NCBI GenBank assembly: GCA_964387965.1
Contig: CAYLXO010000004.1
Location: 1 to 44,364, forward strand
From: an uncultured Candidatus Saccharibacteria bacterium
GTDB taxonomy: Bacteria > Patescibacteriota > Minisyncoccia > Phycocordibacterales > UBA9973
Length of the DNA stretch: 44,364 nt
Reading direction: 5' to 3'
The position numbers were made by a program, and so were the translations under genes. The notes beneath the pieces are model-generated. The model had not been told where the DNA came from and did no database searches. It saw only the letters and a list, made by a program, of their open reading frames with translations. Positions 3,218 through 37,781 of this stretch are shown piece by piece. The first letter of the stretch is position 1; each line of letters opens with the position of its first letter.

Positions 3218-3255
3218 AATAATTTAAAAATAAAACTTGTAATTAAACGAACACA

Positions 3256-3865: not shown

Positions 3866-3869
3866 ACTC

Positions 3870-3897
3870 ATACTACCAGTTTATGACCAAAAGTCAA
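3870..3897 (-). promoter_or_regulatory. Candidate promoter TTGACT-16 nt-TAGTAT for rplJL
   Basis: The minus strand reads TTGACTtttggtcataaactggTAGTATgagtGTGCC. The predicted start falls at the base of the leader stem. Confidence 0.45.
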
Positions 3898-3919
3898 CCG
3901 CAAGTTTTTACCTGCGGTT
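3889..3919 (-). terminator. Terminator after the small ORF 3923-4075
   Basis: The minus strand reads AACCGCAgg-taaaaa-cTTGCGGTT followed by gacTTTT, starting right after the TAA stop. Confidence 0.55.
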
Positions 3920-3922
3920 ACT

Positions 3923-4075
3923 TTAGTTTGGAACAGTGGTTGAAGCTGTCCCCTCTTTTGCATCCCCACTATCAGATGATTTTGAGTAATGATTGATTAT
4001 GAGAAGTCCAGCAACTCCAATGAGTGCCATCACCACAAGTCCAAGAAGCATCTTAAAAAAATGTTTTACGTACAT
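3923..4075 (-). CDS. Small (50 aa) single-TM membrane protein, hypothetical; not in the ORF track (below 60 aa)
   Basis: My translation is MYVKHFFKMLLGLVVMALIGVAGLLIINHYSKSSDSGDAKEGTASTTVPN. It is bracketed by its own TATAAT (4084-4089, 8 nt before the ATG, leaderless-type) and its own terminator. It does not resemble SecE. Confidence 0.4.
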   Translation of the reverse strand: MYVKHFFKMLLGLVVMALIGVAGLLIINHYSKSSDSGDAKEGTASTTVPN

Positions 4076-4103
4076 ACATAGTGATTATACATATCTGACA
4101 TAC

Positions 4104-4131
4104 AAAAAACCACCCAAATAGGTGGTTTTTT
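4104..4131. terminator. Bidirectional terminator AAAAAACCACC-caaata-GGTGGTTTTTT just after the stop of CDS 4133-4816
   Basis: This is an 11-bp inverted repeat with flanking A and T runs, read directly. Confidence 0.75.
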
Positions 4132-4132
4132 G

Positions 4133-4816: not shown

Positions 4817-4842
4817 ACCGAGCATTATACTCACATTTTCCC

Positions 4843-4873
4843 AAAACAAAACACCCCCGATTTCTCGGGGGTG
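4843..4873 (-). terminator. Intrinsic terminator of the giant surface protein gene
   Basis: The minus strand reads CACCCCCGA-gaaa-TCGGGGGTG followed by TTTTGTTTT. Confidence 0.8.
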
Positions 4874-4921
4874 TTTTGCGCTGTCTGGTTTAATACAGAG
4901 CGTTAGATTAGTCGAAACTAA

Positions 4922-7900: not shown

Positions 7901-8158
7901 GAATCCTGTTGAAGGAAGTCCGTGTGAAGTCTGGTACGCCTTAACTGCTGCGAGAGTAAGTGGTCCGAAGTTTCCTACAGCTGGTGTAACTCCAAGAGCT
8001 TTCTGGAGTTCAGCAACATCTGCATTTCCCTTCATACCGTACTTCAAGTTTGTGTTGAATGTGTAAGCGCTAACTGAAACTGCTCCAATGAGCAAGCTAG
8101 CTGCTGCCACAAGTCCCAAACCTGCTTTCGCGATTTTTGATTTGAGTGCGTTAGTCAT
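4922..8158 (-). CDS. Giant (1078 aa) secreted or cell-surface protein: N-terminal signal/anchor, a peptidoglycan-binding (PG_binding_1-like) domain, then a long Thr/Ser/Gly/Val/Ala-rich beta-repeat region
   Basis: The N-terminus is KIAKAGLGLVAAASLLIGAVSVSA. The segment ADVAELQKALGVTPAVGNFGPLTLAAVKAYQTSHGLPSTGFVGALTRAAL matches the PG-binding helical repeat. The remainder is low-complexity and Ig-like/S-layer-like, with no Cys-rich or enzymatic motifs. Confidence 0.8.
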   Translation of the reverse strand: MTNALKSKIAKAGLGLVAAASLLIGAVSVSAYTFNTNLKYGMKGNADVAELQKALGVTPAVGNFGPLTLAAVKAYQTSHGLPSTGFVGALTRAALNAGGTTTTTGGTTVTTGAVTAGLSTDNPASVTLTAGSANSTVLKFDVANGTSAAVNVTSVKVTKYGNLGNTYVTGVSVVDGNGMRHGNVVTTLGADGQATLGLSADPITVPANSKVTLSIKVNLSSSAGVSFGMKIAAAGDIMLSTGTVSGTFPLMGNTMWVESSSSLGAVTLDEKPVNASGVTLNADATSQQEIAKFSVAETTSNEAVMLTGVKLYNNGNAAPTDYADVQLVDQTGTVVATAQPMGQYVTFAINPGYTIGKGQTKDFTVRAKLVAGASRTIQFVVYNDYDLTVVGAMTNVSILATAGSTDTSFPIGDTTSVYNKVTVGSGSLVFSRATDSSSTSVVPGATDVVLAKYTAKPVGEDMELRGFSFGLDQDTGSHALTGTVYVKVDGATVFSAAANTTNFPVNGTSSARSLSSYPILKAGVSSVVEVVASVSSSANSSDAYFVNDFDITSVKRLLTNDIMDPSVAVQDGFTRAVQAATLTTTTLSTPVATSIVPGTNGVALADFEFNATGSGEDVRVTAVTVTDTLGSGSDYSGLSNLVMKDDAGNVLTTTSSTSTNANTVAFTFTNAIVVSKTATTKIHLFGDLLASTGTSHTFKIASGNTTASGKDTGNTVTASVSGTGQTMTATTGGNLNIATLSGAGFTPNTAAVVSINATDGIYLAAKFNSLYEGQKITTFKLKATGTALVQNNIKNIRLYAQTGSGALLSTTTAFATASQFSTCSSNVCSYTWTSADNFLPMSINPGTPVTVFVKADIQGENVAKLGNDFYMSVTNDGTDVIAKGVTTATAPTYDSGTAGNSGAHLNINPFSVVVTGETPTNGSTNLTSMGAGTTLGRFKVMNNGSAQITLTHATFTDTGSHTGTDERYRVYASSENSNDYTANTLETSGSDTFAFGSLASTITINGGSYRYLTVTLSTVGSVAAGDSYSLSVASLGDLKFSVTEANLGYDATQNGDQADTISSLYVDGKPVLGSVQKQ

Positions 8159-8911
8159 AGAAAATTTTTTTTAATATTGTTTTGGGATTTCAACCAAAAC
8201 GGATGCACATAATAATTAACTCGACACTGATGTTAATTGCGTGCATCATTTATTTTTTTGCAAAACGATGTGTAAAACGTTTTGCTATCTTCCCTACATT
8301 TCTGTAGGTCTGATCATTGAACTATTTTGTTTTCGATTTTGATTTCTCAAAATCGAAAACTGTTCTGCCGTGTCGACATGGCATGTGACATATATATGTG
8401 TGATCAAGATGCTAGATGCAAAGTGATATCACAACAAATACTGTTACAAGAAGTGACGGACGGCGCTCGAAAACTTATTCTCAAAAATTTTTACATTATA
8501 TTAAATCGGATTAATGCCGAAAAAATAATCACATAAAAAATGTTGAGTACGCAAAAACATTTTCATATTTTTTGCGCTATGTAGTTTTCAATGACCAATC
8601 CGTCGCACATATCCAAAATGTATTACATTGTCGAGAGGCCTATCCTCCTCGTCAAAACAATTTGGACATGCACTTGATACGCAATCGCGCCACGCAATAA
8701 ATGCGCGGAGAAAACTGCGTACACGCACATTATATTCCCTCTACCCTATACGGGCAAAGTAATATAATGTGGATAACCACTATAGCCTAAAAGGGCTAAA
8801 AAATCAACCGCGAAGCTTATTTTATATATTTTGAGCTATGTAGATAACTAAGCTATTTCTATTGATTGAATAGTACCTCTCTGTGCCACATAAAGCTGAG
8901 GAATATTCATA

Positions 8912-9754
8912 TTAAAGGTATTCGATAGATTCAGTATAGGTACTCCAACGCTTCTCCCCCTGCTTCTTAAGTACACCTTCCTTAACTAACGACAAAAGTT
9001 CACGCTGTACAGTCTTTTCACCCACACCAGGAAGAGCAAGTAATACATCTTTAATAGTTGCTCTTCCTTTATTTCGGACAATAGAAAGGATGTCATCACG
9101 GCGCATGTTTTTTGCTAGCTGATCAGCGCGCTTGAATGTCCGATGACTCTGACTGTTAGAAACAGTTTCTCTATCAGACTTTGTATAAAGGACATTACTG
9201 AAACTCGATTGTCCTTTATCCAAAATGCTTTTCTTGTAAGGGTTTTCTAAAAGACTTACATTGTTAGTACCGACATCAAACATTTCACTTTTAAGGACAA
9301 CATTTCGATAGCCTGGATGAGTCACTGTGTGTGTGCGTGGTGCTCCATACAATACATCGATTTCGTTACGGACCTTTTCTATCTCTGAAGTGATAATGCG
9401 AGCATTCATTTCAGAAATAATTCCGATAGTTGATGCGAGTTTGATAAGGACCAAAATATGCTCAGCCCCAGCACGTAAATCTTCAATCACTGTATAGCTT
9501 GGCTCGGTTGAAGTGTGTCCTATTTTTCGTGTCCATTTTATGAGCTCCAAAGACAAGGACCGGAGCTCGTGTCTCATTGGTTCAGACTCAGAAACAAAGT
9601 CCGTTACCATATAAATTGCTGTAGATATCTTTTCAGACTTTTTAACTATTACGGACATCGAATTATGCTTATGATTAAAGCTTTTTGTGAGTTCTTCGAC
9701 ATGTTCCTGTCCGTGAGAATTTGTATTGGACTTATTGAAATTTGATGTTTCCAT
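8912..9754 (-). CDS. Hypothetical protein with a C-terminal winged-helix DNA-binding domain
   Basis: The 280-aa ORF has an ATG start. The C-terminus is RRDDILSIVRNKGRATIKDVLLALPGVGEKTVQRELLSLVKEGVLKKQGEKRWSTY (DeoR/wHTH-like). The N-terminal helical domain is unassigned. Confidence 0.6.
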   Translation of the reverse strand: METSNFNKSNTNSHGQEHVEELTKSFNHKHNSMSVIVKKSEKISTAIYMVTDFVSESEPMRHELRSLSLELIKWTRKIGHTSTEPSYTVIEDLRAGAEHILVLIKLASTIGIISEMNARIITSEIEKVRNEIDVLYGAPRTHTVTHPGYRNVVLKSEMFDVGTNNVSLLENPYKKSILDKGQSSFSNVLYTKSDRETVSNSQSHRTFKRADQLAKNMRRDDILSIVRNKGRATIKDVLLALPGVGEKTVQRELLSLVKEGVLKKQGEKRWSTYTESIEYL

Positions 9755-25919: not shown

Positions 25920-26504
25920 TTAGTGTTTGAACATCTTTTTAATTTCTGCAAAAGCCTGTGGAAGTTCATACCAACCTGATGATCCGTTCAAATGTCCACC
26001 GTTTTTTATTGCATGTATAGGTGCATTCAACTCCCCACTTAATTCATACGCTTCACTCATTGATACAACTGCATCATTGTCTCCATGAATAATTACGAAA
26101 TTGGCGCATGAACTACGAATTTTTTTAAAATCAAAACCTCCCGTAAAAAAATTCTTAATAACGGAATATTCTTTTCCTTCTGGAGAATGCACAGGACCTG
26201 AAACTAAAACAGCTCCTAATATTTTCTTTCCTTTAGGAAGAGTCTCAAGATATCGCAATATTGCAGGAACCCCAAGAGAATGTCCAACAAGAACAGTCCC
26301 CATGTCCGGACTAGCTACTTCTTTTTGTATAACATGTACCCAATCTTTTTTCTTAGGCGTATCAGGGTTTGGCATTGCAAGTGATACGGCAAAAACATCA
26401 AGGTGCTTCCCAAGCTCACCCATGAGCCACGGACGCCACCCGCCGTTTGGCTTACCGCCGAAGCCATGAATAAGTATTACTTTTGGACTTGTTTTTTTAC
26501 TCAT
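25920..26504 (-). CDS. Alpha/beta serine hydrolase, YdeN/RBBP9-like
   Basis: It contains VILIHGFGGKP, the nucleophile elbow GHSLG, IIHGDNDAVV (Asp) and NGGHLN (His). It is 194 aa long. Confidence 0.75.
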   Translation of the reverse strand: MSKKTSPKVILIHGFGGKPNGGWRPWLMGELGKHLDVFAVSLAMPNPDTPKKKDWVHVIQKEVASPDMGTVLVGHSLGVPAILRYLETLPKGKKILGAVLVSGPVHSPEGKEYSVIKNFFTGGFDFKKIRSSCANFVIIHGDNDAVVSMSEAYELSGELNAPIHAIKNGGHLNGSSGWYELPQAFAEIKKMFKH

Positions 26505-27090
26505 CTGCTTTTAGTTCGTTGATACGAGACATAAGGTCAATATCCATACGAATAGCTCGTTCAGCAATCGCACGTGCTGTCTCCATGCTGATATTAAGTG
26601 CATCACGATCAAATACAATATCTGCTTCTCGTGTAGAAACTCCAGTATTGTTTCCGTTAAACATATCAAATTCCTTACACGCATTTTTTATAATTTCGAA
26701 AAAATCACGAGCCATATCAGAAACTGCCAGTAAGTTTATATGTGTCCCTTCCAAATCCTGCAGAAGTTGCTTCCGCTCTTCAGTCTCAAATCCTGACGGC
26801 TTTTTTATTTTTATTTCCCCCTCGAGAGTGTCGTCGGCAAGTTCGAGCATGTTTTGCAATCCAGCAAAACTCATCCCATCTGTCATGGCTGGAACTCCAA
26901 GTTCTAAAATGTATCCTTCAAATTCAGCAGAAAGATACTCCCCGCTTGTCTCAAGCGAAAGAGAGAGGTCACGTCTAAAACCTTTAAGCGCCCCGACAAG
27001 AAGCTCTGCGCCTCCTTGCACCTTTGCAAGTTCTATTTCTAGTATTTCCTTGCCTTCAGCAAGTCTATCTCGTACTTCGCCTTCTATCAT
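26497..27090 (-). CDS. Acidic hypothetical protein (197 aa)
   Basis: The ATG start overlaps the HAD stop by 4 nt, and its own stop overlaps the next start by 8 nt, so it is translationally coupled. No motif was recognised. Confidence 0.55.
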   Translation of the reverse strand: MIEGEVRDRLAEGKEILEIELAKVQGGAELLVGALKGFRRDLSLSLETSGEYLSAEFEGYILELGVPAMTDGMSFAGLQNMLELADDTLEGEIKIKKPSGFETEERKQLLQDLEGTHINLLAVSDMARDFFEIIKNACKEFDMFNGNNTGVSTREADIVFDRDALNISMETARAIAERAIRMDIDLMSRINELKADE

Positions 27091-27716
27091 GCACTCATTG
27101 TACCAAAGAATCGGTATATTTCCGCCTCAAGTTCGGGCACTGTATCAACAACAGCAAACGGTTCAGCTTTTTCAAACTCTTCGCGGGTGTGAAGCCCCCA
27201 GGTGACACCTATAGAACGCACGCCACACTCATTCCCTTCTCTCATGTCGCCAAGTGTATCGGTAATGAATATTGTTTCGCTTGGCTGTAAACCATATTGT
27301 GTAAGTAATTGATTTATTTTTATTGTTTTTCTTGCATGAGTATCACTGCCGAGGATTTCCTCAAATCTATCTCGAATATTTTCTTCTTCGAGAGATTCAA
27401 TAATATGTCGCGAATGAGATGATGAAACTATAGCGAGCCTAAAATCTTTAGACAGATCAAGCACAAGCTTTCGTATGACATCGTGAGTAGTGAGTTTTTT
27501 GAGACCATCTTTGTACAACTCTTCCCAATCGGTACGAAGGACATATCCATCGTGTGTAACTGCATGATGTAGTCCATCGTAAAAATTCCCAGACGACATC
27601 TTTTTTAGATACTCGTCAGATAAATGCGGATTTGTGCTTCGCATAATACCAAGAACTAAATCCGTAGTATTAACGAGCACTCCATCAAAATCAAAAATTA
27701 CGAGTTTTTTAAACAT
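27087..27716 (-). CDS. HAD-superfamily phosphatase (phosphoglycolate phosphatase/PGMB-like subfamily)
   Basis: Motif I is VIFDFDGVLVNT, motif II is AIVSSS, and motif IV is FITDTLGDM. Its start overlaps the ileS stop by 1 nt. Confidence 0.85.
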   Translation of the reverse strand: MFKKLVIFDFDGVLVNTTDLVLGIMRSTNPHLSDEYLKKMSSGNFYDGLHHAVTHDGYVLRTDWEELYKDGLKKLTTHDVIRKLVLDLSKDFRLAIVSSSHSRHIIESLEEENIRDRFEEILGSDTHARKTIKINQLLTQYGLQPSETIFITDTLGDMREGNECGVRSIGVTWGLHTREEFEKAEPFAVVDTVPELEAEIYRFFGTMSA

Positions 27717-30700
27717 TATTTTGTGATTACAATTGTATCACCCTTATACACAATCTCTTTTGCAAGTACCGTCTTTTTGAGGTCAGCTTCGTTATCTGCC
27801 ACCAATGCTTTTACACGTTCAGGGAGTGTAAGAGATATGACATCACTCGGAGTAAGATTTTCTTTCTTGCGTGTATCTTGAATTTCTCGCACAAGTTCGC
27901 GGTAATCCCCTTCTTTTTTAAGCTCAGGTGTGATTTCAGTAGCAAGCACAAAATCTGTACTGAGTGCCGTATCAGCAACAAGCTCTTTAATGTTTAATTC
28001 ATCTTTTATAATTTCAGTATACGCAAGACTTAAGTCGTACGCTTTCACTCGTAATTCTTTAAGTGGCTGTCGAACAGCAATGTTAGCTTTTTGTCGTGCT
28101 TGCAATCCAAGAGTGACAATCGTACGCGCAGTGCGAGTATTTTCCAATACAAGTGCGTTCACTTCTCCTGCCTCAGGCCAATTTGCAAGGTGTACACTCT
28201 CGCTGTCGTTTTCGTGGCGCAATTTTTGCCATATTTCTTCCGCGATAAATGGTGCAAACGGTGCGATGATAAGCGCGGTTGTTTTTAGTACAAAGTAGAG
28301 TGTACCTTTTGCTTCATTATCACCGTCTTTGATTCGGTCTCGTGATCTGCGTACGTACCATGTCGAAAGGTCATCAACAAAGAGATCAAATGGACGTGTC
28401 GCTTCTGTCATATCGTATGCATCCATTCCCTTTGTAACATCGCGGATAGTTTCGTATAAGCGCGCGATGATCCATTCATCGAGTACATTACCACTACGAA
28501 GTTCATATTTTGTAGTCTCTGCATCCATATCACGATACAACTCGTAAAACGCTGTAACGTTAGACAATCGTCCGACAATTTTCGAAGCGATTTCTGCAAC
28601 TGTGCGCTCAGAGAAATTTGCATCTTCTCCTTTCATGAGCGGACTTGCCATAAGATACAATCGGAGTGGATCAACGCCGTATTTATCAAAAAGAATCCAT
28701 GGATCTGGAAAATTATTTTTTGATTTCGACATTTTTTGTCCGTCTTCTGCAAGTAGTGTTCCTGTTGTCACCACATTTTTAAACGGCGCGCCTCCAAAGA
28801 GCACTGTTGATACAGCATGAGTATAGTAGAACCAGGTGCGAGTCTGAGCGATATATTCGGCGACAAAGCCAGCTGGGAAATTGTTGCACTGCCAGTCTTT
28901 ACCGTCACAAATCTCTCCCGGAGCATATGCAAATGGATAATGATCTTGCGCAAACGGCATCGAGCCTGATTCAAACCAGCAGTCAATAACCTCGGGAATA
29001 CGCTGGTATTCTTCACCTTGCTCATCTACGAGCACAATCTCATCAATGTACGGACGGTGTAGATCTATTTCATAGTGAGCATTATGTGGAAATGGGACAA
29101 ATGGAAGTGGGCGAATTTCTGCATTTACAAAGTCAGAGTATTCATCGTTAATTTCAGAAAGATTTTCATATCGCAATCCGTTTGTTACAAAGTTTACAGC
29201 GCGAGCCACACCCATATGTGCCACGATAAGCACTTTCTTCCCTAAGTATTTTGACTCGATATCAAATAAGAATTCTCCAACGCGTTTTACTAGTTGTGAA
29301 AAATTTTCTCCATCTTTAAATTCATGAAACGGATCTGTCGCATATTTCAAATCGTAGTAATGACGGAATTCATCTTTTGTAACTCCATCAAAGCTTGAAT
29401 CAATCTCCCATTCACGAATTCGATCATCGTAGACAACATTGTCTATTGGAAACCCGATTGTGTCACAAACTATTTGTGTTGTTTCTTTTACACGAAGTAT
29501 TGGCGATGCGATAACTACATCAACTTTTTCTGTAAAGCGCTGTGCACTTTCAAGCACTTGCGCTTTACCTTGTTCTGTAAGATGTGCACTATGATGCAAT
29601 TCCTGATTGTGCGTCGAGCCCAAATTATTTTCTGCTTGCCCGTGGCGCATAATAAAGTACGTATTGCCTGACTTTTTTGTCTTTGCTTTCAAATCTGCAA
29701 CCGATTGCACAAAAAGATACTTACCATTTTTTGATTTCCAAAACGGAAGTGGGCTTGCCCAATAACGATTGCGTGAAATATTCCAGTCAGGAGCATTCTC
29801 GACTGTGTGTTCGAATCTTCCTTCCTTAAGGTGCGCCGGAATCCAATTCATTGCCTGAGCTTTATCAAGCAATTCTTTTTTTACTTTTTGAATATTGATA
29901 AACCAACTTGGGAGCGCATAGTAAAAGAGTGGCGTCTCGCAACGATAACAGTGTGGGTATGAGTGAGTAATCTTTTCTTTTTTAAAGAGTGCTCCACTTG
30001 CCTGCAAGTACTTCAAGATTTCAATATCTGCCTTCATGTGGCCGTCTTTTTCAGTAGACTTTGGCTTGATAAGCATACCTGCAAAATCTGTAACCTCAGG
30101 TGCAAACTTTCCTTCTGGAGTGACGTGCACAATAAATGGGATATTTTCTTTTTGAGCAAGTACCGCGTCATCTTCACCGAACGCAGGTGCTTCATGAGCA
30201 ATACCAGTACCATCAGTAGTCGTCACAAAATCTCCATGAACAACTGTCCATGATTTTGGGTTTCTAAGCAACGCCTCCCCTTTTGTGTAGTACGGAAACG
30301 GAGGTGTATATTTTTTGCCAAGCAATTTTTCTCCTTTAAATTCTTCGACGATTTCGTACTGCTTGTCTTTAAAAACAGCTTCTGCTCTTTCTTTGGCTAC
30401 GACATAGAACTTGTCCTCGATTTTTGCTTTTACATATGTCGCCTCTTTATGAACAGCAAGTACAATATCCCCTGGAAGCGACCATGGGGTTGTCGTCCAC
30501 GCGATAAGAACAGTATTAGGATCTTCAACGAGTGGCATATTCACGTACACAGAAATATCCGAAATATCCTTGTACGAATTATCCATCGCGATTTCAGATT
30601 TTGCGATTGGTGTCTCACAACGAGGACAGTATGCAAGCACACGGACTCCTTCATACAAAAGCCCTTTGTCATTCATTTGGTTGAGAGCCCACCACACACT

Positions 30701-31162
30701 CTCGATAAATGTGTTGTCCATTGTTTTGTATGAGCCGTCAAAATCTACCCAGCGTCCGATACGTTCCACTGTCTTTTTCCAATCATGCACATATGTAAGC
30801 ACTTTACTTCGCGCATATTCGACAAACTTATCCACGCCAAGCGCTTCAATTTCGTTGTGACCAGAAACTTTCAAATCTTTTTCAACGATATTTTCAATCG
30901 GTAAGCCGTGACAATCCCACCCCCATCGTCGAGGAACGCTATATCCTTGCATCGTTTGGTAACGACCAATAACATCCTTTGCCGTTGAACCAAGAATGTG
31001 CCCGTAGTGTGGAAGCCCTGTTGCAAACGGTGGTCCATCATAAAAAACATAGTTCCCTTTTGGAGATTCTTTTCGAAGTGATTTATGGAACGTGTCATTT
31101 TCCTTCCAAAATTGGAGGATTTTCTCTTCTCGTTCTGCGTGTTGTGATTTTTTGTTTTCCAT
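27716..31162 (-). CDS. ileS: Isoleucyl-tRNA synthetase (eukaryote-like type 2) carrying an internal ~200-aa histidine-phosphatase-family insertion
   Basis: Seen are HIGH = PHYGHILG, the editing-domain block TTTPWSLPG, DWNISRNRYW, VIDCWFESGSMPF and KMSKSKNNF. The insertion spans residues ~499-698 and contains RHG (see findings). Confidence 0.93.
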   Translation of the reverse strand: MENKKSQHAEREEKILQFWKENDTFHKSLRKESPKGNYVFYDGPPFATGLPHYGHILGSTAKDVIGRYQTMQGYSVPRRWGWDCHGLPIENIVEKDLKVSGHNEIEALGVDKFVEYARSKVLTYVHDWKKTVERIGRWVDFDGSYKTMDNTFIESVWWALNQMNDKGLLYEGVRVLAYCPRCETPIAKSEIAMDNSYKDISDISVYVNMPLVEDPNTVLIAWTTTPWSLPGDIVLAVHKEATYVKAKIEDKFYVVAKERAEAVFKDKQYEIVEEFKGEKLLGKKYTPPFPYYTKGEALLRNPKSWTVVHGDFVTTTDGTGIAHEAPAFGEDDAVLAQKENIPFIVHVTPEGKFAPEVTDFAGMLIKPKSTEKDGHMKADIEILKYLQASGALFKKEKITHSYPHCYRCETPLFYYALPSWFINIQKVKKELLDKAQAMNWIPAHLKEGRFEHTVENAPDWNISRNRYWASPLPFWKSKNGKYLFVQSVADLKAKTKKSGNTYFIMRHGQAENNLGSTHNQELHHSAHLTEQGKAQVLESAQRFTEKVDVVIASPILRVKETTQIVCDTIGFPIDNVVYDDRIREWEIDSSFDGVTKDEFRHYYDLKYATDPFHEFKDGENFSQLVKRVGEFLFDIESKYLGKKVLIVAHMGVARAVNFVTNGLRYENLSEINDEYSDFVNAEIRPLPFVPFPHNAHYEIDLHRPYIDEIVLVDEQGEEYQRIPEVIDCWFESGSMPFAQDHYPFAYAPGEICDGKDWQCNNFPAGFVAEYIAQTRTWFYYTHAVSTVLFGGAPFKNVVTTGTLLAEDGQKMSKSKNNFPDPWILFDKYGVDPLRLYLMASPLMKGEDANFSERTVAEIASKIVGRLSNVTAFYELYRDMDAETTKYELRSGNVLDEWIIARLYETIRDVTKGMDAYDMTEATRPFDLFVDDLSTWYVRRSRDRIKDGDNEAKGTLYFVLKTTALIIAPFAPFIAEEIWQKLRHENDSESVHLANWPEAGEVNALVLENTRTARTIVTLGLQARQKANIAVRQPLKELRVKAYDLSLAYTEIIKDELNIKELVADTALSTDFVLATEITPELKKEGDYRELVREIQDTRKKENLTPSDVISLTLPERVKALVADNEADLKKTVLAKEIVYKGDTIVITK

Positions 31163-31166: not shown

Positions 31167-31427
31167 TTATGTAATAAATGCTGTTAGTACTGTGATAATT
31201 CCGAGGAGCACACCAGGGACATTTGCCCAAAATACAAACTTTTCCTTTTTCATATACCCATAGATAGACCAGATAATGCAGTTGAGTGTCGTGACGGCGG
31301 GCATAATATAAATATGGCTTTCTCCAGCAAGATTGTCTTTTGCTATTTCTATGAGTGACACAAACATTAGTATGGCAAGAGTTGCCCCAGCTGTGCCAAA
31401 CATATTTATAATTTTTTCTTTGGTCAT
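31167..31427 (-). CDS. SemiSWEET-like (MtN3/PQ-loop family) 3-TM membrane transporter, 86 aa
   Basis: The protein is MTKEKIINMFGTAGATLAILMFVSLIEIAKDNLAGESHIYIMPAVTTLNCIIWSIYGYMKKEKFVFWANVPGVLLGIITVLTAFIT. It has three helices, and the W..YG and AN spacing matches bacterial SemiSWEETs. The ORF track's TTG start at 31457 lies inside the T-box terminator and is rejected. The stop is 4 nt before the ileS ATG. Confidence 0.6.
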   Translation of the reverse strand: MTKEKIINMFGTAGATLAILMFVSLIEIAKDNLAGESHIYIMPAVTTLNCIIWSIYGYMKKEKFVFWANVPGVLLGIITVLTAFIT

Positions 31428-31433
31428 ATAAGT

Positions 31434-31480
31434 AAAAAACTCGTCCTTAAAAAACAATACAATTGTTTTTTAAGGACGAG
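31434..31480 (-). terminator. T-box expression-platform terminator
   Basis: It reads CUCGUCCUUAAAAAACAAU-ugu-AUUGUUUUUUAAGGACGAG followed by UUUUUU. The 5' arm shares CUCGUCCUU with the antiterminator. Confidence 0.9.
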
Positions 31481-31683: not shown

Positions 31684-33390
31684 TTACATCCTCTCTGGCA
31701 CATTAATACCAAGGAGGTAAAGTCCGTTCTCCATTGTTTTTCGAAATGCGCCTGTAAGTGCCACTTTGTATGGTGAAGAAGCGTCTTCAGGATTTACAAT
31801 CTGTTCTTGCCCGTAGAAAGAATTAAACGTTGAAGCAAGTTCGGTCATATACCCTGCAATATGATGTGGCTCTCGAAGTGAAAATGCTCGTTCTACAACT
31901 TCAGGGAAACGGTAAAGCATTTTTTCAAGATTGGTTGTACTCCAATTTTCTGGAATTGATGTGTTGCCTACGACTCCCTGTGCTTTTGCTTTTTCTAATA
32001 TTGAACCAGCACGCACGGTTGTGTACTGAAGATATGGCCCAGAGTCACCATCAAATGACACAGATTTTTCCTCGTCGTAAATAATATTACCGCCAAGAGC
32101 TTGTTTTAAAATTACGTACTTAATAGCAGAAACAGCTACCTGTTCAGCAAGTTTTTCTTTTTCTGAATTCTCGAATTCTCGGTCTTTAATTTTCTCAAAA
32201 ACAAGTTCTTTCGTGTCACTCAGAAGTGACTCACCTGTTATCACATTTCCTTTTCGAGAGCTCATTTTTCCATGAGCAAAACGCATCATCCCGTGTGTAA
32301 GATGCTTCATGCGACTTTCGTAGTCAGGATGCATGATTGAAAGCGCTTTTTGCACTACTTCCATATATGGACCCTGTTCGATTGCAGTAACAACAATAGA
32401 TAAATCGGGATTTACTTCAGTAAATTTTGTGACAGTAAGACCGATTTCTTTTGCTTCGTACGTTGGCAACCCTTGTTTTGTGATAAACACACGAGTGTGA
32501 AGTTTTGGATCATGCTCTTCAGCATGAAATACAATTGCTCCGTCTGACTCAGCAAATACTTTTCCTATATTCTCACGCACAATACCGGCACCAAGCGGTG
32601 CCATTGTGCTTTCAAAAAAGTAATTATTGAATTTTGTGCCGAGTGTTTTGTAGATTGTTTCAAAAGCTTGAAGAGTCACTTCTCTTCCCCAGTCATACAT
32701 TTCATTTATCGCTGAGTCGCTTTTTTCGTACACTTTTTTGTTTATTGCATCAATCTCGGCTTTTACATCTGCACTTTCTTCATACAAATTTGAAGCCTCG
32801 CTGTAACAAGCACCAATATATTCTGCCTGTTTTTCAACGGTGAGTGTAGTATCGCCCTTACCTTTTTTCATAAGCATCCATAGTGCCTTTGCAACATGAA
32901 GCCCTACATCTCCTTGATAGTTGGCACGGACTACGTTTGCACCAGAATATTCAAAAATACGAGCCGTTGATTCTCCAATAGCATTGGTCATTAGGTGCCC
33001 GATATGAAATGGCTTAAATGGATTTGGGTCGGTGTACTCAACCATTACCTTTTTCCCCGCTGATGCGCTGTTGCTTCCCCAGTTTTTAGTGTCTGCAATT
33101 TCTTTAAGTGACTGTGCAAAAAATTCTTTTGAAAGATGGAAGTTTATAAACCCAGGACCTGCAATTTCTATTTTTTCAATTTCTTTAATTTTATTTTCAG
33201 AAAGTTTTGTAACGATTTCTTCTGCTAGAGTGCGCGGATTTTTACCTAGTGCCTTTGCATGTGCCATAGCAACATTTGTCGAATAATCTCCGTGTGATAG
33301 ATCTGCTGGGTGCTCAAGCAAAACATTCGGAGCATCGACTCCGAGTTCTTTCAAAGCATTTTGTATTTGTATTTTTATTTGTTCCTGCAT
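31684..33390 (-). CDS. argS: Arginyl-tRNA synthetase
   Basis: It contains PNPFKPFHIGHL (HIGH), GKMSSRKGNVI, and a C-terminal DALR-type anticodon-binding domain ending in M. Confidence 0.95.
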   Translation of the reverse strand: MQEQIKIQIQNALKELGVDAPNVLLEHPADLSHGDYSTNVAMAHAKALGKNPRTLAEEIVTKLSENKIKEIEKIEIAGPGFINFHLSKEFFAQSLKEIADTKNWGSNSASAGKKVMVEYTDPNPFKPFHIGHLMTNAIGESTARIFEYSGANVVRANYQGDVGLHVAKALWMLMKKGKGDTTLTVEKQAEYIGACYSEASNLYEESADVKAEIDAINKKVYEKSDSAINEMYDWGREVTLQAFETIYKTLGTKFNNYFFESTMAPLGAGIVRENIGKVFAESDGAIVFHAEEHDPKLHTRVFITKQGLPTYEAKEIGLTVTKFTEVNPDLSIVVTAIEQGPYMEVVQKALSIMHPDYESRMKHLTHGMMRFAHGKMSSRKGNVITGESLLSDTKELVFEKIKDREFENSEKEKLAEQVAVSAIKYVILKQALGGNIIYDEEKSVSFDGDSGPYLQYTTVRAGSILEKAKAQGVVGNTSIPENWSTTNLEKMLYRFPEVVERAFSLREPHHIAGYMTELASTFNSFYGQEQIVNPEDASSPYKVALTGAFRKTMENGLYLLGINVPERM

Positions 33391-33411: not shown

Positions 33412-33834
33412 CTATTTCCTTCCAGTCGATCCGAAGCTTCCTTCGCCTCGTGCTGACTCACTTAGACTATCAGTTTCCACAAGATCTGCAATCTCTACAG
33501 GATAGATGACTATCTGCGCAATCTTGTCTCCTTCTTCTACGGTATACGGTTTGTCAGACAAATTTACGATATGTGTGTTGTACTCTCCGCGAAATCCAGC
33601 ATCAAATACACCACCCATGGTATGGAGTCCCGCATTTGAAGTACTTGATTTGTCTTTGATGATAGCCGCGTATCCAATAGGAAATTCCATTGCAAATCCA
33701 TGCATAAAACGATGATGCTCCCCTGGCATAATCGTCACCGTTTCCATTGAATACACATCCATCCCTACATCTCCTGGATGATGGTATTTGGGAAGCTTTG
33801 CCTCAGGTTTTAATTTTTTTACTTTAATTTGCAT
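33412..33834 (-). CDS. dut: dUTP pyrophosphatase (trimeric dUTPase)
   Basis: It contains GDVGMDVYS, GVFDAGFRGE, a KIAQIV strand, and C-terminal motif V RGEGSFGSTG. Confidence 0.9.
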   Translation of the reverse strand: MQIKVKKLKPEAKLPKYHHPGDVGMDVYSMETVTIMPGEHHRFMHGFAMEFPIGYAAIIKDKSSTSNAGLHTMGGVFDAGFRGEYNTHIVNLSDKPYTVEEGDKIAQIVIYPVEIADLVETDSLSESARGEGSFGSTGRK

Positions 33835-34327
33835 TATCGTTTCCTTTTATAAAATGATTGATAGTCAAAACAAAACTCGGTACAAACATACTAGGGTTTT
33901 CTTGAAAAAGTTTCAAGATTTCTTCTTTTGCAAACCAACGTATTTCATCTACTTCATCTTCTCTTCTTGTAAATGTATACTCGCTATTTATTTCCGAGCT
34001 ATACCACTGACAAAAATATTCATGACTGGTTGAGCGTCGCATTTTTTGATCCTCTTTCGGAATAAAATTTATAAGCCCAATTTCCTCTGCAGCTTCTTTT
34101 ATTATATTTGATTCATACGTCTCTCCCTCTTCTACCGTACCAGCAACTGCGGGGCCCCAAAGCCCTGGTTCTCTTTTTTTTACTTTCGCACGCTTTGCAA
34201 GTAAGACTTCCCCTTTTTCATTTGTCACCCACAAAGCAGACACTCGACAAATTTCGCCGTTTTTTCTTTCATCGATGTCTTTGTATTCGATGAGTTCATC
34301 TTGTTCGTCTACAATGGGGATTCTCAT
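33824..34327 (-). CDS. NUDIX hydrolase (IDI/YfcD-like subfamily, lacks the IDI catalytic Cys)
   Basis: The NUDIX box is GTVEEGETYESNIIKEAAEEIGL. It overlaps the dut start by 11 nt. Confidence 0.8.
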   Translation of the reverse strand: MRIPIVDEQDELIEYKDIDERKNGEICRVSALWVTNEKGEVLLAKRAKVKKREPGLWGPAVAGTVEEGETYESNIIKEAAEEIGLINFIPKEDQKMRRSTSHEYFCQWYSSEINSEYTFTRREDEVDEIRWFAKEEILKLFQENPSMFVPSFVLTINHFIKGNDNAN

Positions 34328-34335
34328 AATAAAAT

Positions 34336-34827
34336 TTAATTCAAAAAATGCTTTATCTCTTCATCAAACCTATGTACGAATTGGTCGATATCATTTAAAA
34401 TCAATTCTGGAAGTTCATTTTTTGAAACCCATTTAATTTCTGCGACTTCTTCCTTGTCGGGAATCAATTCGTAGTCGTTTGGAATAACAAGCTTGTAAAA
34501 TTGCCCCACACACTTGCCTTGAGCAAAATCTCGATTCATTTTTATAAGTGCCTCCGGCTTAAAACCCTTAATACCAAGCTCCTCTTCCATTTCTCTCACT
34601 ATTGCCTCGTCGTATGATTCTGGATGACTCACCGCGCCAGTAACAGCGTATGACCAAAGTCCTGGAAACGTTTTCTTTGTATGGGCACGCCTAACAAGCA
34701 ATACTTCACCTCTATCATTTTCAACCCAAAGCAAAACAATTCTACATCTGTCGTTTGAATTTACTTCGTGCCTTGGTTTTATACCAAGCACTTCATCATT
34801 CTCATCTACAAGATAGAGATGCTCCAT
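34336..34827 (-). CDS. NUDIX hydrolase, tandem paralog of the previous gene
   Basis: The NUDIX box is GAVSHPESYDEAIVREMEEELGI. The N-terminal pattern (VDENDEVLG...R..LLWV.N..GEVLL.RRA..K...PGLW) matches its neighbour. Confidence 0.8.
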   Translation of the reverse strand: MEHLYLVDENDEVLGIKPRHEVNSNDRCRIVLLWVENDRGEVLLVRRAHTKKTFPGLWSYAVTGAVSHPESYDEAIVREMEEELGIKGFKPEALIKMNRDFAQGKCVGQFYKLVIPNDYELIPDKEEVAEIKWVSKNELPELILNDIDQFVHRFDEEIKHFLN

Positions 34828-34830
34828 AGA

Positions 34831-35520
34831 TTACTTCAAAATCTTTTTGACATCAGCAAAAACTTTTTCGTGGATAACTTCGCGTGGTAGTATTCCGTCT
34901 TTACTTGCGCAATCTATTTTCTTCCATGCTTTTTCGCGCTTTGAAAGCCACAACGCACTCATTTCAGAATTTTTCAAAAAATTAAAATCGTTTTCATGTA
35001 CATCTTTCTTTTTTCCAAGATAGGCACGCGCGTGGTGCATATTTCGACTCTTGATGAGAGTCTTAATTATTGGAAGTGGAAGATATAGGTAGAAAACCAT
35101 ATCTGGTTTTGGAATCTTGAATACATCGTATTCCATCTTAGAAAGCCACTTCATAAATTCGGCACGCTTTTTTGAATCTTTTATTTTTCCGCCTTGGTGA
35201 ATCTGGTTTGCCGAAACATATCTATTGGCGAGCACAATGTGTCCTTCCTTTATCCATTTTTCAATCTTTGCCTTCGATTCAAACCTGTCAGCCGCATACA
35301 CAACTGATGCAATCTTTGGGTGAATATTTACCCAATTGTAATATTGTTCCGAAAGACAGTGTCCCAAAAACGCACCAAAAAAGTTCCCGTAATATTCAGG
35401 GAAATCTACCATCTTTACAGAATAGCCCTCTTTCTTTAATCGCTTAGCAAGAAGCTCGCTCTGAGTCGCCTTTCCTGAACCATCTGTGCCGTCTATTACT
35501 ATAAGTTTCCCCTTTGCCAT
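34831..35520 (-). CDS. tmk: Thymidylate (dTMP) kinase family protein
   Basis: The P-loop is LIVIDGTDGSGKATQ. Also seen are AADRFE and the DRY-like ANRYVSANQIHQG. It is 229 aa long. Confidence 0.75.
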   Translation of the reverse strand: MAKGKLIVIDGTDGSGKATQSELLAKRLKKEGYSVKMVDFPEYYGNFFGAFLGHCLSEQYYNWVNIHPKIASVVYAADRFESKAKIEKWIKEGHIVLANRYVSANQIHQGGKIKDSKKRAEFMKWLSKMEYDVFKIPKPDMVFYLYLPLPIIKTLIKSRNMHHARAYLGKKKDVHENDFNFLKNSEMSALWLSKREKAWKKIDCASKDGILPREVIHEKVFADVKKILK

Positions 35521-35552
35521 AGGGTTACTGTACCAAGAAAATTTGGGTATTA

Positions 35553-36140
35553 CTAATCTATCTCTTTCCAGCCTAGCTGTTTTAACAGAGACTTACAGAG
35601 CTCAACTGGCATTCCCATTAAAGTATCTGTTCCGCCTTTCAAACTTTTTACGGCAGGAGGAAACTCTGGATCCATATAAGTAAATCCACCTGCATACTGC
35701 CCGTATGTTCCTTTGGCGATATATCGCTCTATAAACGCGTCGTTAAACGGACCCATAACAAGCTCTCCAACATCAAGTCCTTCGCGTGTTTCTTTTGTTT
35801 CTATATTTGTAACAGTTATTGCTGTAGCAAAACCAAATGGAGTCTTCCCGTCATACGCTTTTAGAAACTTTCGTTCTTCGTCTGCAGAAAGTGGTTTTTC
35901 AAAGAGATCATCCCCTCGAAACAAAATTGTATCTGCTGTTATAAGAAAAGCGGGTTCGCTAATGCGAGCAAGGAGTGCATCACGTTTTGCATTGGCAAGA
36001 AGTTGAACAAGTTTCAAATGATCTTTTTCGCGAATCGCCTTCTCATCAACATCTGGCGTAATAACTGTACCGATTTTAATATCGGCCTGCTCGAGTAATA
36101 CTTTCCTTTTTGCAGATGCTGAACCTAATATGACTTTCAT
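35553..36140 (-). CDS. maf: Maf-family nucleoside triphosphate pyrophosphatase
   Basis: It begins MKVILGSASAKRKVLLEQA and contains ITADTILFRGDDLFEKP and AGGFTYMD. It is 195 aa long. Confidence 0.85.
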   Translation of the reverse strand: MKVILGSASAKRKVLLEQADIKIGTVITPDVDEKAIREKDHLKLVQLLANAKRDALLARISEPAFLITADTILFRGDDLFEKPLSADEERKFLKAYDGKTPFGFATAITVTNIETKETREGLDVGELVMGPFNDAFIERYIAKGTYGQYAGGFTYMDPEFPPAVKSLKGGTDTLMGMPVELCKSLLKQLGWKEID

Positions 36141-36142
36141 GT

Positions 36143-36766
36143 CTATATGATAACCTCTTTATCCTTACCTACAAACACACATTTTCCACTGTCGCAAAAT
36201 AGTGCTTGTCCATCTCTTAAAATCTTCACGGGATATTTCGAATGGTCAACTTTTTCTTTTATTTTTTCTCTCATTTCATCCGTATAATGAGCAAAAAACA
36301 TATACGGCACAAAATGCAGCCCGGCAAAATCTGTAAGCCCATAAGTCTCCTTATTTTTATCTTTCCAGAATGTAGTTTCAATATTTGCACCCATGATATA
36401 TGAACCTGCACTTGTTCCTACATACATTCCGCCTCTTTGAAAAAATTCATCTAAAAAAATTTTAAAATTTGATTTTCTAGCTTCTAAAAGCAAGTAACAC
36501 GTATCTCCGCCAACAACATGAATAACATTTTTGTCTTGAAAAAAACTCCTGAGTTCATCAATTGTTTTATCTTTAATATCAAATTCGTAGAAATCTATAC
36601 CGAGTTTTTTCATCTCGTTTTTATGATTTTCGATATACGATTTATTTTCGCGCAAATTACCTGCCGTCGTTACATATCCAAGCCTAATTTCTGAAAAAGG
36701 AATCCCTAGAAGCTTGTATCCTTCTTCATATAAAAACCCAGAATTTGACGCGAGGACTAGTTTCAT
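36143..36766 (-). CDS. Peptidase S51 family (dipeptidase E/cyanophycinase-like)
   Basis: It contains VVGGDTCYLL and the GTSAGS nucleophile motif, with a downstream His (FFAHY). Confidence 0.75.
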   Translation of the reverse strand: MKLVLASNSGFLYEEGYKLLGIPFSEIRLGYVTTAGNLRENKSYIENHKNEMKKLGIDFYEFDIKDKTIDELRSFFQDKNVIHVVGGDTCYLLLEARKSNFKIFLDEFFQRGGMYVGTSAGSYIMGANIETTFWKDKNKETYGLTDFAGLHFVPYMFFAHYTDEMREKIKEKVDHSKYPVKILRDGQALFCDSGKCVFVGKDKEVII

Positions 36767-37191
36767 TTTTGTTCACAGAATAATTTTAGCCCACTGTTTG
36801 GGTCAATCTTTTTTTCGAGTTTTTCTGGAAGCCAATCAATGACTGCTTCCCCTGTTGCAGATATTATGAGTTTATTTACATGTCCACCAAAAGTTTCGTG
36901 ATTGTCGTCTCCAAACACCCCATGCGCATGCACCCACGGCGCTCCGTTTATCCAAGCAACATTACCGGTGATTGTTATGACTTCAATATTTCGAGCTGAA
37001 TGTGTTTTTGAAGAATACTTTTGTGTATCGATATCATAGTAAGCAAGCTCAACATCTGTGCACCCACCAATCATAGAAAAATGGAAAGATTTCCCTGCTT
37101 TTTCGGCAAATTCTGTAAGTAATGAAATTGGCTCATCCCCTTTTTCAAATTGAAGGACAGTTTTTAAATTGTTTTCAAATGCGATTTTCAT
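36763..37191 (-). CDS. PPC/DUF296 domain protein
   Basis: It contains SMIGGCTDVELAYYD...ITGNVAW..G.PWVHAHGVFGD...FGGHV and is 142 aa long. There is a 4-nt overlap with the next gene. Confidence 0.7.
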   Translation of the reverse strand: MKIAFENNLKTVLQFEKGDEPISLLTEFAEKAGKSFHFSMIGGCTDVELAYYDIDTQKYSSKTHSARNIEVITITGNVAWINGAPWVHAHGVFGDDNHETFGGHVNKLIISATGEAVIDWLPEKLEKKIDPNSGLKLFCEQK

Positions 37192-37193
37192 AT

Positions 37194-37781
37194 TTAGTCT
37201 GGTCGGCCTATAGATTTCTCTATTGCTTCCATGTGAGCTGGATTATTTCTACGTAAATATTCTAGCACTTTTCCACGCACTCGTGCGCTAGTAAGTCCAG
37301 CTGTTTTCGCATATTCCAAAATATCCTTAATTGCAGGCTCAATTTCGTGTTCAGAATTTACCATTTTTTCAATCTCGCAAATATCATAGCCAAAATCCAT
37401 TCTATCTATGTCGATAGTAAAACCATTTTTCTTGTATTTCCTACGAGTTGTTTCAATTCGACAAAATTTCTCTATGCCAAGACCTTTAAGATTGTCTACG
37501 AGGCTTTTTGTGTTATCAAAACCAAGTTCGATGATTATCTCGCTTTCATTTTCTATCTCTCTATATTGATCTGCCATTCTATCTGGACCGATATTAAGTG
37601 GCATTTTCAATTCCCATCTATCCCCTCGCATGCGAAGCCAAGTATCTTTTGTGGTAAGTGACCAATTTGAATAATCGAAATACTCATCAACAAAAACTTT
37701 TTCGCCAACAAATTCTGCATCTTGAATAAGCAGTTTTTCTTGTTCGGGGGATATGAAAAATTTTTTCTCGACTTCGATCAT
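37194..37781 (-). CDS. CYTH-domain protein, thiamine-triphosphatase (ThTPase)-like
   Basis: It has the EXEXK motif IEVEKKF at the N-terminus, WLRMRGDRWELKMP, and IDIDRMDFGYDICEIE. The layout is colinear with my recollection of mammalian ThTPase. Confidence 0.75.
   Translation of the reverse strand: MIEVEKKFFISPEQEKLLIQDAEFVGEKVFVDEYFDYSNWSLTTKDTWLRMRGDRWELKMPLNIGPDRMADQYREIENESEIIIELGFDNTKSLVDNLKGLGIEKFCRIETTRRKYKKNGFTIDIDRMDFGYDICEIEKMVNSEHEIEPAIKDILEYAKTAGLTSARVRGKVLEYLRRNNPAHMEAIEKSIGRPD

Follow-up and report, generated by a model that had tools for sequence, protein, structure and literature searches.

Introduction

What is a second enzyme doing within the catalytic domain of an aminoacyl-tRNA synthetase, and how did it get there? 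The question is raised by a stretch of DNA of 44,364 nucleotides, hereafter the window, which corresponds to positions 1 to 44,364 of contig CAYLXO010000004.1 (assembly GCA_964387965.1), deposited under the name of an uncultured Candidatus Saccharibacteria bacterium. Its ileS gene encodes a type-2 isoleucyl-tRNA synthetase (IleRS) in which an earlier note, made from the sequence alone, had recognized an internal histidine phosphatase. The explanation favoured here, to which a rough probability of 0.5 is given as a whole, is that an active phosphatase, captured from a neighbouring gene, would be nested in the synthetase and would act there on a small molecule.

Identity of the nested domain and of its host

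The gene, the nested domain and the predicted catalytic residues are located as follows.

27716–31162, minus strand: ileS, encoding a type-2 isoleucyl-tRNA synthetase of 1148 residues with a nested phosphatase, in one uninterrupted open reading frame (ORF)
29087–29662, minus strand: folded part of the branch-1 histidine phosphatase domain, residues 501–692 (PF00300, AlphaFold2 and Foldseek)
29642–29647, minus strand: R506 and H507 of the RHG motif, H507 being the predicted phospho-accepting nucleophile (codons verified by translation)
29492–29494, minus strand: R557, second phosphate-binding Arg, in an SPxxRxxxT motif (codon verified)
29411–29413, minus strand: E584, predicted general acid, aligned with the Glu of 'RIIE' in PspA (4IJ5) (codon verified)
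29216–29218, minus strand: H649, distal catalytic His (codon verified)

Judged by its profile match, its catalytic set and its modelled PGAM-like fold, the insert, which adds about 198 residues in frame, is a predicted branch-1 histidine phosphatase, yet it falls in no named subfamily. The Pfam family His_Phos_1 (PF00300) matches residues 503–668 over positions 2–166 of its 194-position profile, with an E-value of 8.6e-25 and 88 bits for a gathering score of 21.7. R506/H507/G508, R557, E584 and H649 align with the catalytic residues of 4IJ5 and 9MMH, and 1EBB/1H2E are matched too; the four signature blocks read by the earlier note are intact. The autonomous fold for which it had suggested a test is also predicted: the AlphaFold2 model of the insert alone, built on an alignment of 80 homologues, has a predicted local distance difference test (pLDDT) of 92 and a predicted template modelling score (pTM) of 0.90. 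Foldseek relates this model, with a probability of 1.00 and template modelling (TM) scores of 0.65–0.75, to PspA (4IJ5/4IJ6), GpgP (4PZ9), HFP (9MMH), PhoE (1H2E) and 6S2Q. The coordinates that the earlier note had given, 29069–29668, correspond to residues 499–698; for the folded domain, the edges listed above are preferred.

The same note had placed the insert in the RHG/phosphoglycerate-mutase superfamily. The superfamily stands, but within it the insert belongs to the phosphatase-type subgroup (PspA/GpgP/PhoE/CobC-like) and not to the mutase subgroup. The root-mean-square deviation (rmsd) of its model is 3.0–3.8 Å for 4IJ5/4IJ6, 4PZ9/4QIH, 6S2Q ('mycobacterial hydrolase 1') and 1H2E and 4.3 Å for 9MMH, against 6–8.8 Å for most phosphoglycerate mutases; a few mutases reach 4.3–5 Å and for some phosphatase entries the fit is no better than 6.9–8 Å, so the ranges of the two subgroups overlap. 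The NCBIfam scores of the insert lie far below the mutase cut-offs, for which equivalog and subfamily models such as TIGR01258, NF038349 and those of the PRK type were considered (dPGM_arch, 59 bits for 225; pgm_1, 22 for 81.7), and a phosphoglycerate mutase identity was rejected on these scores and on the structural fits. They also lie below the cut-offs of the phosphatase equivalogs CobC (TIGR03162, 64 for 162.9), PspA (NF045917, 48 for 350) and SixA (TIGR00249, 33 for 74.5). With PspA (4IJ5), GpgP Rv2419c (4PZ9), PhoE/YhfR (1H2E/1EBB), the riboflavin-pathway HFP (9MMH) and CobC (6NRU/6E4B), the insert shares the fold and the RHG/R/E/H set, but identity is only 17–24% and these proteins are free-standing whereas the domain of the window is nested.

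The host displays the following landmarks, whose conservation was measured in an alignment of 119 full-length homologues (60–83% identity) that also serves below.

30998–31009, minus strand: HIGH signature, read as HYGH by translation (residues 52–55), with H52, Y53, G54 and H55 invariant
29717–31162, minus strand: N-terminal half (residues 1–482), comprising the first Rossmann half, the connective peptide 1 (CP1)/editing domain (WTTTPW, GTGIAHEAP..GEDD) and the WNISRNRYW block
28721–28735, minus strand: KMSKS loop (residues 810–814, read by translation), with K810 and S812–K815 invariant and M811 at least 90% conserved
28058–28480, minus strand: anticodon-binding domain (residues 895–1035, Pfam); the DUF5915 region of the type-2 C-terminus comes after it

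On both sides of the insert, the protein is the normal type-2 IleRS that had been claimed. Its score for TIGR00392 (ileS, NCBIfam) is 836 bits, for a cut-off of 621.4. Pfam finds tRNA-synt_1 in two pieces (residues 14–500, corresponding to positions 1–272 of the 414-position profile, then the remainder), Anticodon_1 and DUF5915. The editing motifs WTTTPW (T223–W227) and GTGIAH (H323) as well as D332 are invariant. HIGH, KMSKS, the CP1 editing domain, the anticodon domain and DUF5915 are shared with the type-2 enzymes of Priestia megaterium (8C8U/8C8V), Thermus thermophilus (1ILE) and yeast (8WND). The P. megaterium IleRS2 is the top match both in the PDB and by Foldseek; the comparison with 8C8U gives an E-value of 4e-209 by sequence, the window protein differing by the extra residues between the equivalents of positions 464 and 477 and by the loss of the zinc-ligand Cys. 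The AlphaFold2 model of the full-length protein (mean pLDDT 83.5, pTM 0.72) retrieves IleRS2 structures as its top Foldseek matches, with E-values of about 1e-74. According to a survey of IleRS published in 2026, type-2 IleRS are the mupirocin-resistant form and [A/G]xHH is a mupirocin hyper-resistance variant of the HIGH motif; unlike this variant, the HYGH of the window is canonical. The 44-kb window carries no second ileS. By its TIGR00392 score, motifs, DUF5915 and closest structures, the protein is a type-2 IleRS; it is the intact synthetase of a Paceibacteria-like bacterium belonging to the CPR (Candidate Phyla Radiation), and nothing in its sequence argues against a working host. From sequence and models together, it is very probable that a folded and active phosphatase is nested in a functional IleRS.

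Insertion site and loss of the zinc knuckle

The insertion separates two arms of a small knuckle.

29663–29716, minus strand: knuckle N-arm and linker, residues 483–500, LFVQSVADLKAKTKKSGN
28985–29086, minus strand: knuckle C-arm, residues 693–726, HNAHYEIDLHRPYIDEIVLVDEQGEEYQRIPEVI

Between the WxISRxR and DxWFxSG blocks, the IleRS of the window has 267 residues, versus 69 in two insert-less patescibacterial relatives and 70–76 in the other IleRS compared that carry nothing at this place, which bears out the in-frame insertion of about 200 residues that the earlier note had noticed. In the alignment with 8C8U, residues 482 and 693 pair with 464 and 477, so that about 210 residues replace 12; when residues 504–685 are excised, the protein aligns collinearly with 1ILE, 6LDK and 8C8U from WNISRNRYW to past DCWFESG. 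Taken with the insert-less relatives, these two alignments show that the insert caps a small knuckle, peripheral in the domain and located between the two blocks, at whose tip it lies; it is outside the β-sheet of the Rossmann fold, in which the earlier note had described it as embedded. CP2 and CP3 are listed among the connective peptides in a paper on the yeast IleRS, which does not state their boundaries; the knuckle would be CP3.

In 1ILE, in 8C8U and in the IleRS of two insert-less loci (L085 and L088; handles beginning with L and P denote loci and proteins of this analysis), the knuckle carries zinc-ligand Cys arranged as CxxC...CxC or CxxC...CxxC. All four are replaced in the window, where the corresponding segments read WKSKNGK and LVDEQGE (28985–29086 and 29663–29740; residues 475–500 and 693–726). 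In the insert-bearing IleRS, the metal site has gone where the domain has been gained. It was also observed that the Lys-rich linker KAKTKKSGN preceding the phosphatase (residues 492–500; 29663–29689) is 94–100% conserved, above most of the insert; it might serve as a hinge or make contact with RNA or with phosphate.

Conservation of the catalytic residues

R506, H507, G532, S553, R557, E584 and H649 are invariant in all 119 homologues, and G508, N513, L528, T529 and T561 are conserved in 91–99% of them. The insert is otherwise the most variable part of the protein, with a mean top-residue frequency of 0.50 versus 0.63–0.86 elsewhere. This association of invariant catalytic residues with a drifting remainder points to retained catalysis rather than to a decaying passenger. 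As synonymous divergence is saturated even against the closest homologue (locus L081, 83% identity), the proportions of nonsynonymous (pN) and synonymous (pS) differences are given in place of dN/dS: they amount in the insert to 0.119 and 0.75 (saturated), respectively, both comparable with the rest of the gene. The insert is under purifying selection.

Distribution of the insert-bearing synthetase

A tblastn search with the insert and its flanks, against one genome per GTDB species, found 237 positive stretches. The best 80 of these 237 all span the insert (43–58% identity), so that at least 80 GTDB species possess it. An uninterrupted frame of at least 1140 residues is present in 65 of the 80 loci, most of the others being cut by contig ends. 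Similarly, both PF00133 and PF00300 are found in each of the 120 top matches in protein databases (58–83% identity). The names of these proteins go no further than 'class I tRNA ligase family protein' or 'isoleucyl-tRNA synthetase', and one Joint Genome Institute (JGI) record is named 'isoleucyl-tRNA synthetase/phosphohistidine phosphatase SixA/...'. According to the depositors' own labels, the best 80 loci come from Nomurabacteria, Paceibacterota, Paceibacteria, Minisyncoccia and Parcubacteria, and many third-party assemblies are labelled Saccharibacteria. Far from being a singular oddity of one genome, this architecture is the standard one for IleRS in a large Paceibacteria/'Nomurabacteria' group. 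The earlier note had itself asked whether the insert might be widespread and already annotated in characterized IleRS; it is widespread and Pfam tags exist, but no paper found describes it in a characterized IleRS.

Several metagenome-assembled genomes (MAGs) labelled 'uncultured Candidatus Saccharibacteria bacterium' (L002, L007, L009 and many TPA_asm loci) share the insert-bearing ileS with MAGs labelled Nomurabacteria or Paceibacterota. The Saccharibacteria and Nomurabacteria labels of the depositors may be unreliable.

Could the architecture result from a chimeric assembly, from a frameshift or from an intein? Nothing speaks for it, although databases do contain some short 'split' IleRS ORFs. 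The single-frame architecture is met again in 65 of the 80 independent GTDB loci, and all 120 of the 120 top homologues have it too, on which ground misassembly and frameshift were rejected, and the GC content, 0.36–0.40 across the insert for about 0.42–0.45 on its flanks, makes no sharp step at the boundaries, which argues against a chimera. An intein was rejected since the phosphatase fold accounts for the whole insert, which gives no match to a Hint domain or to any intein Pfam family, and since H693-N694 is followed by Ala, not by Cys, Ser or Thr. Explanations of this kind altogether retain a negligible probability. Naturally split IleRS were considered for two short ORFs lying on long contigs (P0019 and P0050) and rejected: one contig belongs to a frameshift-ridden long-read assembly; on the other, a stretch upstream of a truncated ileS has no called gene, and tblastn finds there the N-terminal part of IleRS and the first 86 or so residues of the insert. 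A spirochaete origin, suggested by a protein labelled Rectinemataceae (P0018), was discarded too, this protein being a fragment from the C-terminal part of an IleRS, on a contig of 1.4 kb, and its label most likely resulting from a binning error.

Multiple copies, three insertion sites and other nested modules

A profile-free search with the insert alone, in 1.84 billion representative proteins (E ≤ 1e-3), gave 3963 matches, and most of the best ones are embedded at about positions 480–720 of proteins of about 1150 residues. One match that seemed free-standing (P0217) was set aside, as it falls into one cluster with a fragment of IleRS (P0346) at 90% identity, which indicates that some short matches are IleRS fragments.

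Several IleRS harbour two, three or four His_Phos_1 domains, and the R, H, R, E and H residues are kept in every complete copy. One two-copy IleRS (P0201) recurs as a cluster on six contigs, the largest of 1.06 Mb. On the contig that carries P0201 (L082), the two-phosphatase IleRS has as neighbours purA and genes for a DAHP synthase, for SufBD and for a large protein with an SLH domain, a content richer than that of typical minimal CPR genomes.

Insertion sites were mapped with three motif landmarks in about 200 IleRS in which all three could be located; as these proteins come from two queries, they are not an unbiased census. Site A, which is that of the window, lies between WxISRxR and DxWFxSG (134 proteins); site A2 is bounded by DxWFxSG and KMSKS; site B comes next, past KMSKS but ahead of the anticodon-binding domain, and is the only one occupied in 42 proteins. 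The combinations A+B, A2+B, A+A2 and A+A2+B were all seen, two proteins (P0348 and P0351) having one copy at each of the three sites; further multi-copy IleRS include P0235, P0241 and P0247. Sites A, A2 and B all flank the KMSKS loop; spatial statements about them rest on the general architecture of class I synthetases. No N-terminal His_Phos_1 fusion was found among these roughly 200 IleRS. In a neighbour-joining tree, which is rough, with long branches and no support values, the copies group by site and not by protein; this grouping suggests that the copies at different sites derive from old, separate insertion events.

A search with the two-copy protein P0201 retrieved IleRS of 1200–1860 residues, those that are named being labelled Gracilibacteria, Peregrinibacteria and Peribacteria. 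Almost all of them carry His_Phos_1, and other modules are present as well: GNAT, HAD, Ser_hydrolase, AAA_33/AAA_18/Zeta_toxin-like kinases, DUF559 (a Vsr-like nuclease fold) and a Y1 transposase-like domain. According to Pfam coordinates, these modules are internal, with IleRS segments on both sides, and are not read-through fusions. They are found in IleRS of 1.4–1.9 thousand residues (P0347, P0358, P0397, P0399, P0401, P0407, P0408, P0415, P0423 and P0429), for example HAD_2 in P0407, Ser_hydrolase in P0397, and AAA_33/Zeta_toxin-like kinases beside His_Phos_1 in P0408, P0423 and P0429. IleRS thus appears to be an insertion hot-spot in lineages labelled Gracilibacteria or Peregrinibacteria. 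An HD phosphohydrolase domain is also found in one insert-bearing IleRS (P0121), and the frame of locus L016 is similarly long (1339 residues); a co-insertion at the same site was considered for both and rejected, since the HD domain of P0121 is at the C-terminus (residues 1130–1211).

Gene neighbourhood and free-standing homologues

The genes surrounding ileS were compared with those of related loci, over which the counts out of 81 below are expressed.

27087–27716, minus strand: HAD-family phosphatase gene, 209 residues, whose ATG overlaps the TAA stop of ileS by 1 nt (TAATG, shared A)
26497–27090: ORF of 197 residues between the HAD and Ser_hydrolase genes, with no Pfam or PADLOC match; homologue in 4/81 loci
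25920–26504, minus strand: Ser_hydrolase (PF06821) gene, two genes downstream of ileS; 28/81 loci
31167–31457: MtN3/SWEET-like half-transporter gene, 96 residues, between argS and ileS; homologue in 4/81 loci
31684–33390, minus strand: argS, 568 residues, upstream of ileS; kept in 52/81 loci
33824–37781: nucleotide house-cleaning/salvage run upstream of argS, comprising two NUDIX genes, thymidylate kinase (Tmk), Maf, a Peptidase_S51 protein and CYTH

The operon had been described as phosphatase-rich. The HAD gene is indeed present directly downstream of ileS, but it occurs near ileS in only about 15 of the 81 loci, and the idea that it could be a universal partner was dropped. HAD and Ser_hydrolase, encoded by separate genes downstream of ileS in the window, are modules nested in IleRS elsewhere (P0407 and P0397, respectively). 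Neither the insert nor the three downstream genes match anti-phage defence families in PADLOC. Locus L081 largely shares the order of the house-cleaning run, with a PCC-domain gene replacing the Peptidase_S51 gene and an extra dUTPase gene.

Seven of the nearest free-standing homologues of the insert, from the loci L085 (cluster at 4303–9367), L088 (cluster at 2246–8488), L087, L089, L090, L091 and L092, have 187–204 residues and are 31–35% identical to it. Six of the seven adjoin an insert-less ileS, and the contig of the seventh ends right after the phosphatase gene. Among these six, four phosphatase genes lie upstream of ileS on the same strand, with spacers of 1–18 nt in three cases and 119 nt in the fourth, and two are convergent with it. 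argS is found upstream and on the same strand for six of the seven, four times within 133 nt, once at 294 nt and once two genes off. These loci define a conserved argS-phosphatase-ileS cluster, and the lineage of the window has the phosphatase inside ileS instead of beside it. The nested module would thus have been captured from a free-standing neighbour gene.

Comparison with described systems

Synthetases are favoured hosts for domain insertions, as pointed out in the synthetase literature. In class Ia enzymes, the CP1 editing domain and the leucine-specific domain of LeuRS are likewise inserted in loops of the Rossmann-fold catalytic domain; they serve aminoacylation or editing, whereas the module of the window is a phosphoryl-transfer enzyme of a generic kind, which is not known to be linked to the reaction of the synthetase. 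A related database entry is NF040702 of NCBIfam, 'ileS_w_GNAT', which also has a second enzymatic domain inside IleRS; GNAT and His_Phos_1 co-occur in many IleRS labelled Gracilibacteria or Peregrinibacteria. The window protein differs from it by having no GNAT Pfam match and scores only 318.8 bits for a cut-off of 1999. Literature searches returned no functional study of the NF040702 family. In NCBIfam, the insert has as its second-best match (63 bits, below the cut-off of 326) the bifunctional RNase H/acid phosphatase NF005567, of the Mycobacterium tuberculosis Rv2228c type, in which a CobC-like histidine phosphatase is also joined to a nucleic-acid enzyme. However, NF005567 is an end-to-end fusion with a different partner, whereas the phosphatase of the window is a nested insertion.

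The literature searched contains no description of a histidine phosphatase inside IleRS, and the 2026 survey, which covers about 96,000 IleRS sequences and their domain architectures, gives no text match for 'phosphatase' or 'Patescibacteria'. The opinion that this architecture had not been described is consistent with these searches, although databases tag both Pfam domains: the association is visible in domain tags and, as far as the literature found goes, is undescribed and uncharacterized.

Possible functions of the nested phosphatase

The reaction can be sketched from the established mechanism of the family: H507 would attack a phosphomonoester and become a phospho-histidine intermediate, while the phosphoryl group would be held by R506, R557 and H649; E584, as general acid, would protonate the leaving group. 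In the favoured explanation, capture of a free-standing gene located, as in insert-less relatives, between argS and ileS would have produced the nested module. This module would be an autonomous small-molecule phosphomonoesterase, probably with a nucleotide or a metabolite as substrate, although this part is weakly held. The phosphatase would be tied physically and stoichiometrically to IleRS but would stay outside aminoacylation chemistry, and the IleRS would aminoacylate normally. The association recurs as a pair of neighbouring genes, at three different insertion sites and with several copies, which points to selection keeping both activities together, and a functional link is judged somewhat likelier than an accidental one. 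A small-molecule phosphatase co-localized with IleRS and taking no part in aminoacylation has slightly less than an even chance. It is favoured because the subgroup consists mostly of small-molecule phosphatases, because the neighbours are nucleotide house-cleaning or salvage genes (two NUDIX, Tmk, Maf, CYTH and HAD, as well as Ser_hydrolase) and because the modules co-nested elsewhere (GNAT, HAD, Ser_hydrolase, AAA_33/AAA_18) are also small-molecule enzymes.

Several observations weigh against this explanation. The sequence reveals no substrate. The three internal sites all surround the KMSKS loop, and no simple N-terminal fusion is seen, even though the free-standing gene precedes ileS by the short spacers reported above; this suggests that proximity to the synthetic site or to the tRNA matters, which a hitch-hiker would not need. 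Moreover, up to three or four catalytically intact copies per protein are not obviously explained by a single metabolic role. These observations favour roles that depend on proximity, namely dephosphorylation of KMSKS, healing of tRNA ends or action on a ligand of the synthetic site, which, taken together, have perhaps one chance in three.

In the first of these roles, a protein phosphatase acting in cis would clear an inhibitory phosphate from IleRS, for example from the KMSKS serine, and make the synthetase self-repairing or self-regulating. There is a precedent in the toxins HipA and HipT, which phosphorylate S239 of the KLSKR motif of GltX and S197 of the KMSKS motif of TrpS, respectively, and inactivate these two class I synthetases (PMC6581861). 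The position of the three sites fits this role, histidine phosphatases are generally known to include the protein phosphatases PGAM5, Sts-1 and SixA, and the kinases of the AAA_33/Zeta_toxin type co-nested with His_Phos_1 in P0408, P0423 and P0429 could, in some lineages, complete a built-in phospho-switch. However, these AAA_33/AAA_18 domains are usually small-molecule or polynucleotide kinases, neither a kinase module nor a HipA-like gene is seen in the window, and IleRS is not known to be phosphorylated in any organism. The free-standing form is also more consistently co-oriented with argS than with ileS, and a single copy would suffice where up to four are present, which leaves this role improbable. 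Healing of tRNA ends, in which a 3'- or other terminal phosphate would be removed from damaged tRNA-Ile bound to IleRS before repair and charging, is a little less probable still. Nested kinase or HAD modules could assist it, by analogy with polynucleotide kinase-phosphatase: an AAA_33 kinase and a phosphatase (His_Phos_1 or HAD) occur in the same IleRS, the HAD gene of the window is translationally coupled to ileS, T4 Pnkp is known to pair such a kinase with a HAD phosphatase, and the general architecture of class I synthetases would put the sites in the catalytic and stem-contact region facing the acceptor arm. But no branch-1 histidine phosphatase is known to act on RNA ends, no RNA ligase is seen in the window, and there is no reason why IleRS alone should need such a repair.

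The last of these roles, action on a ligand of the synthetic site, is very unlikely. The phosphatase would either hydrolyse pyrophosphate or a nucleotide product and pull activation forward, or inactivate a phosphorylated inhibitor and thus 'armour' a drug target. The KMSKS loop flanked by the sites holds, in class I synthetases generally, the pyrophosphate moiety; the GNAT, hydrolase and kinase modules nested alongside look like enzymes that modify antibiotics; and IleRS, whose type-2 form is the mupirocin-resistant one, is generally known as a frequent target of natural inhibitors. Yet the inhibitors of IleRS are not known to be phosphomonoesters; pyrophosphate, and the Ap4A and adenylates that the earlier note had suggested, are anhydrides or diesters, atypical substrates for the subgroup; and dephosphorylation of AMP would be wasteful in a nucleotide scavenger. 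Even less probable is a pseudo-enzyme without catalysis, which would stand in for the lost zinc knuckle as a structural or tRNA-binding module. The disappearance of the knuckle Cys where the insert is present and the conserved Lys-rich linker (K492–K497) ahead of the domain would agree with it, but not the invariance of the catalytic residues in the 119 homologues as well as in all extra copies, whatever their site, in a domain that is otherwise the most variable one. Finally, a broader proposal, in which patescibacterial IleRS would be a platform where phosphoryl- and acyl-transfer modules are deliberately set around the KMSKS loop and the acceptor-arm face and act on the synthetase, the bound tRNA or the adenylate, is considered unlikely, at about one chance in four.

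Significance for synthetases and for the Candidate Phyla Radiation

Few enzymes are as conserved and as well studied as aminoacyl-tRNA synthetases, and the few extra domains of the bacterial ones are normally devoted to the binding of tRNA or to editing. In the present case, an essential synthetase has within its catalytic domain a phosphatase of a generic kind, predicted to be catalytically intact, across a large radiation of uncultivated bacteria. If IleRS were indeed a platform, it would exert an undescribed translational control, for instance by reversing a toxin-type phosphorylation of KMSKS or by healing or blocking the end of tRNA-Ile. More generally, if the phosphatase acts on IleRS, on tRNA-Ile or on a ligand of the synthetic site, it would reveal a new level at which translation is controlled or repaired in organisms with minimal genomes. 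If, on the contrary, it is a metabolic enzyme carried piggy-back, as in the explanation favoured here, it would be a natural example of repeated domain insertion in permissive loops near an active site, useful for protein engineering. It would also be relevant to the annotation of CPR metabolism, since a phosphatase hidden in ileS would be missed by gene-level pathway reconstruction.

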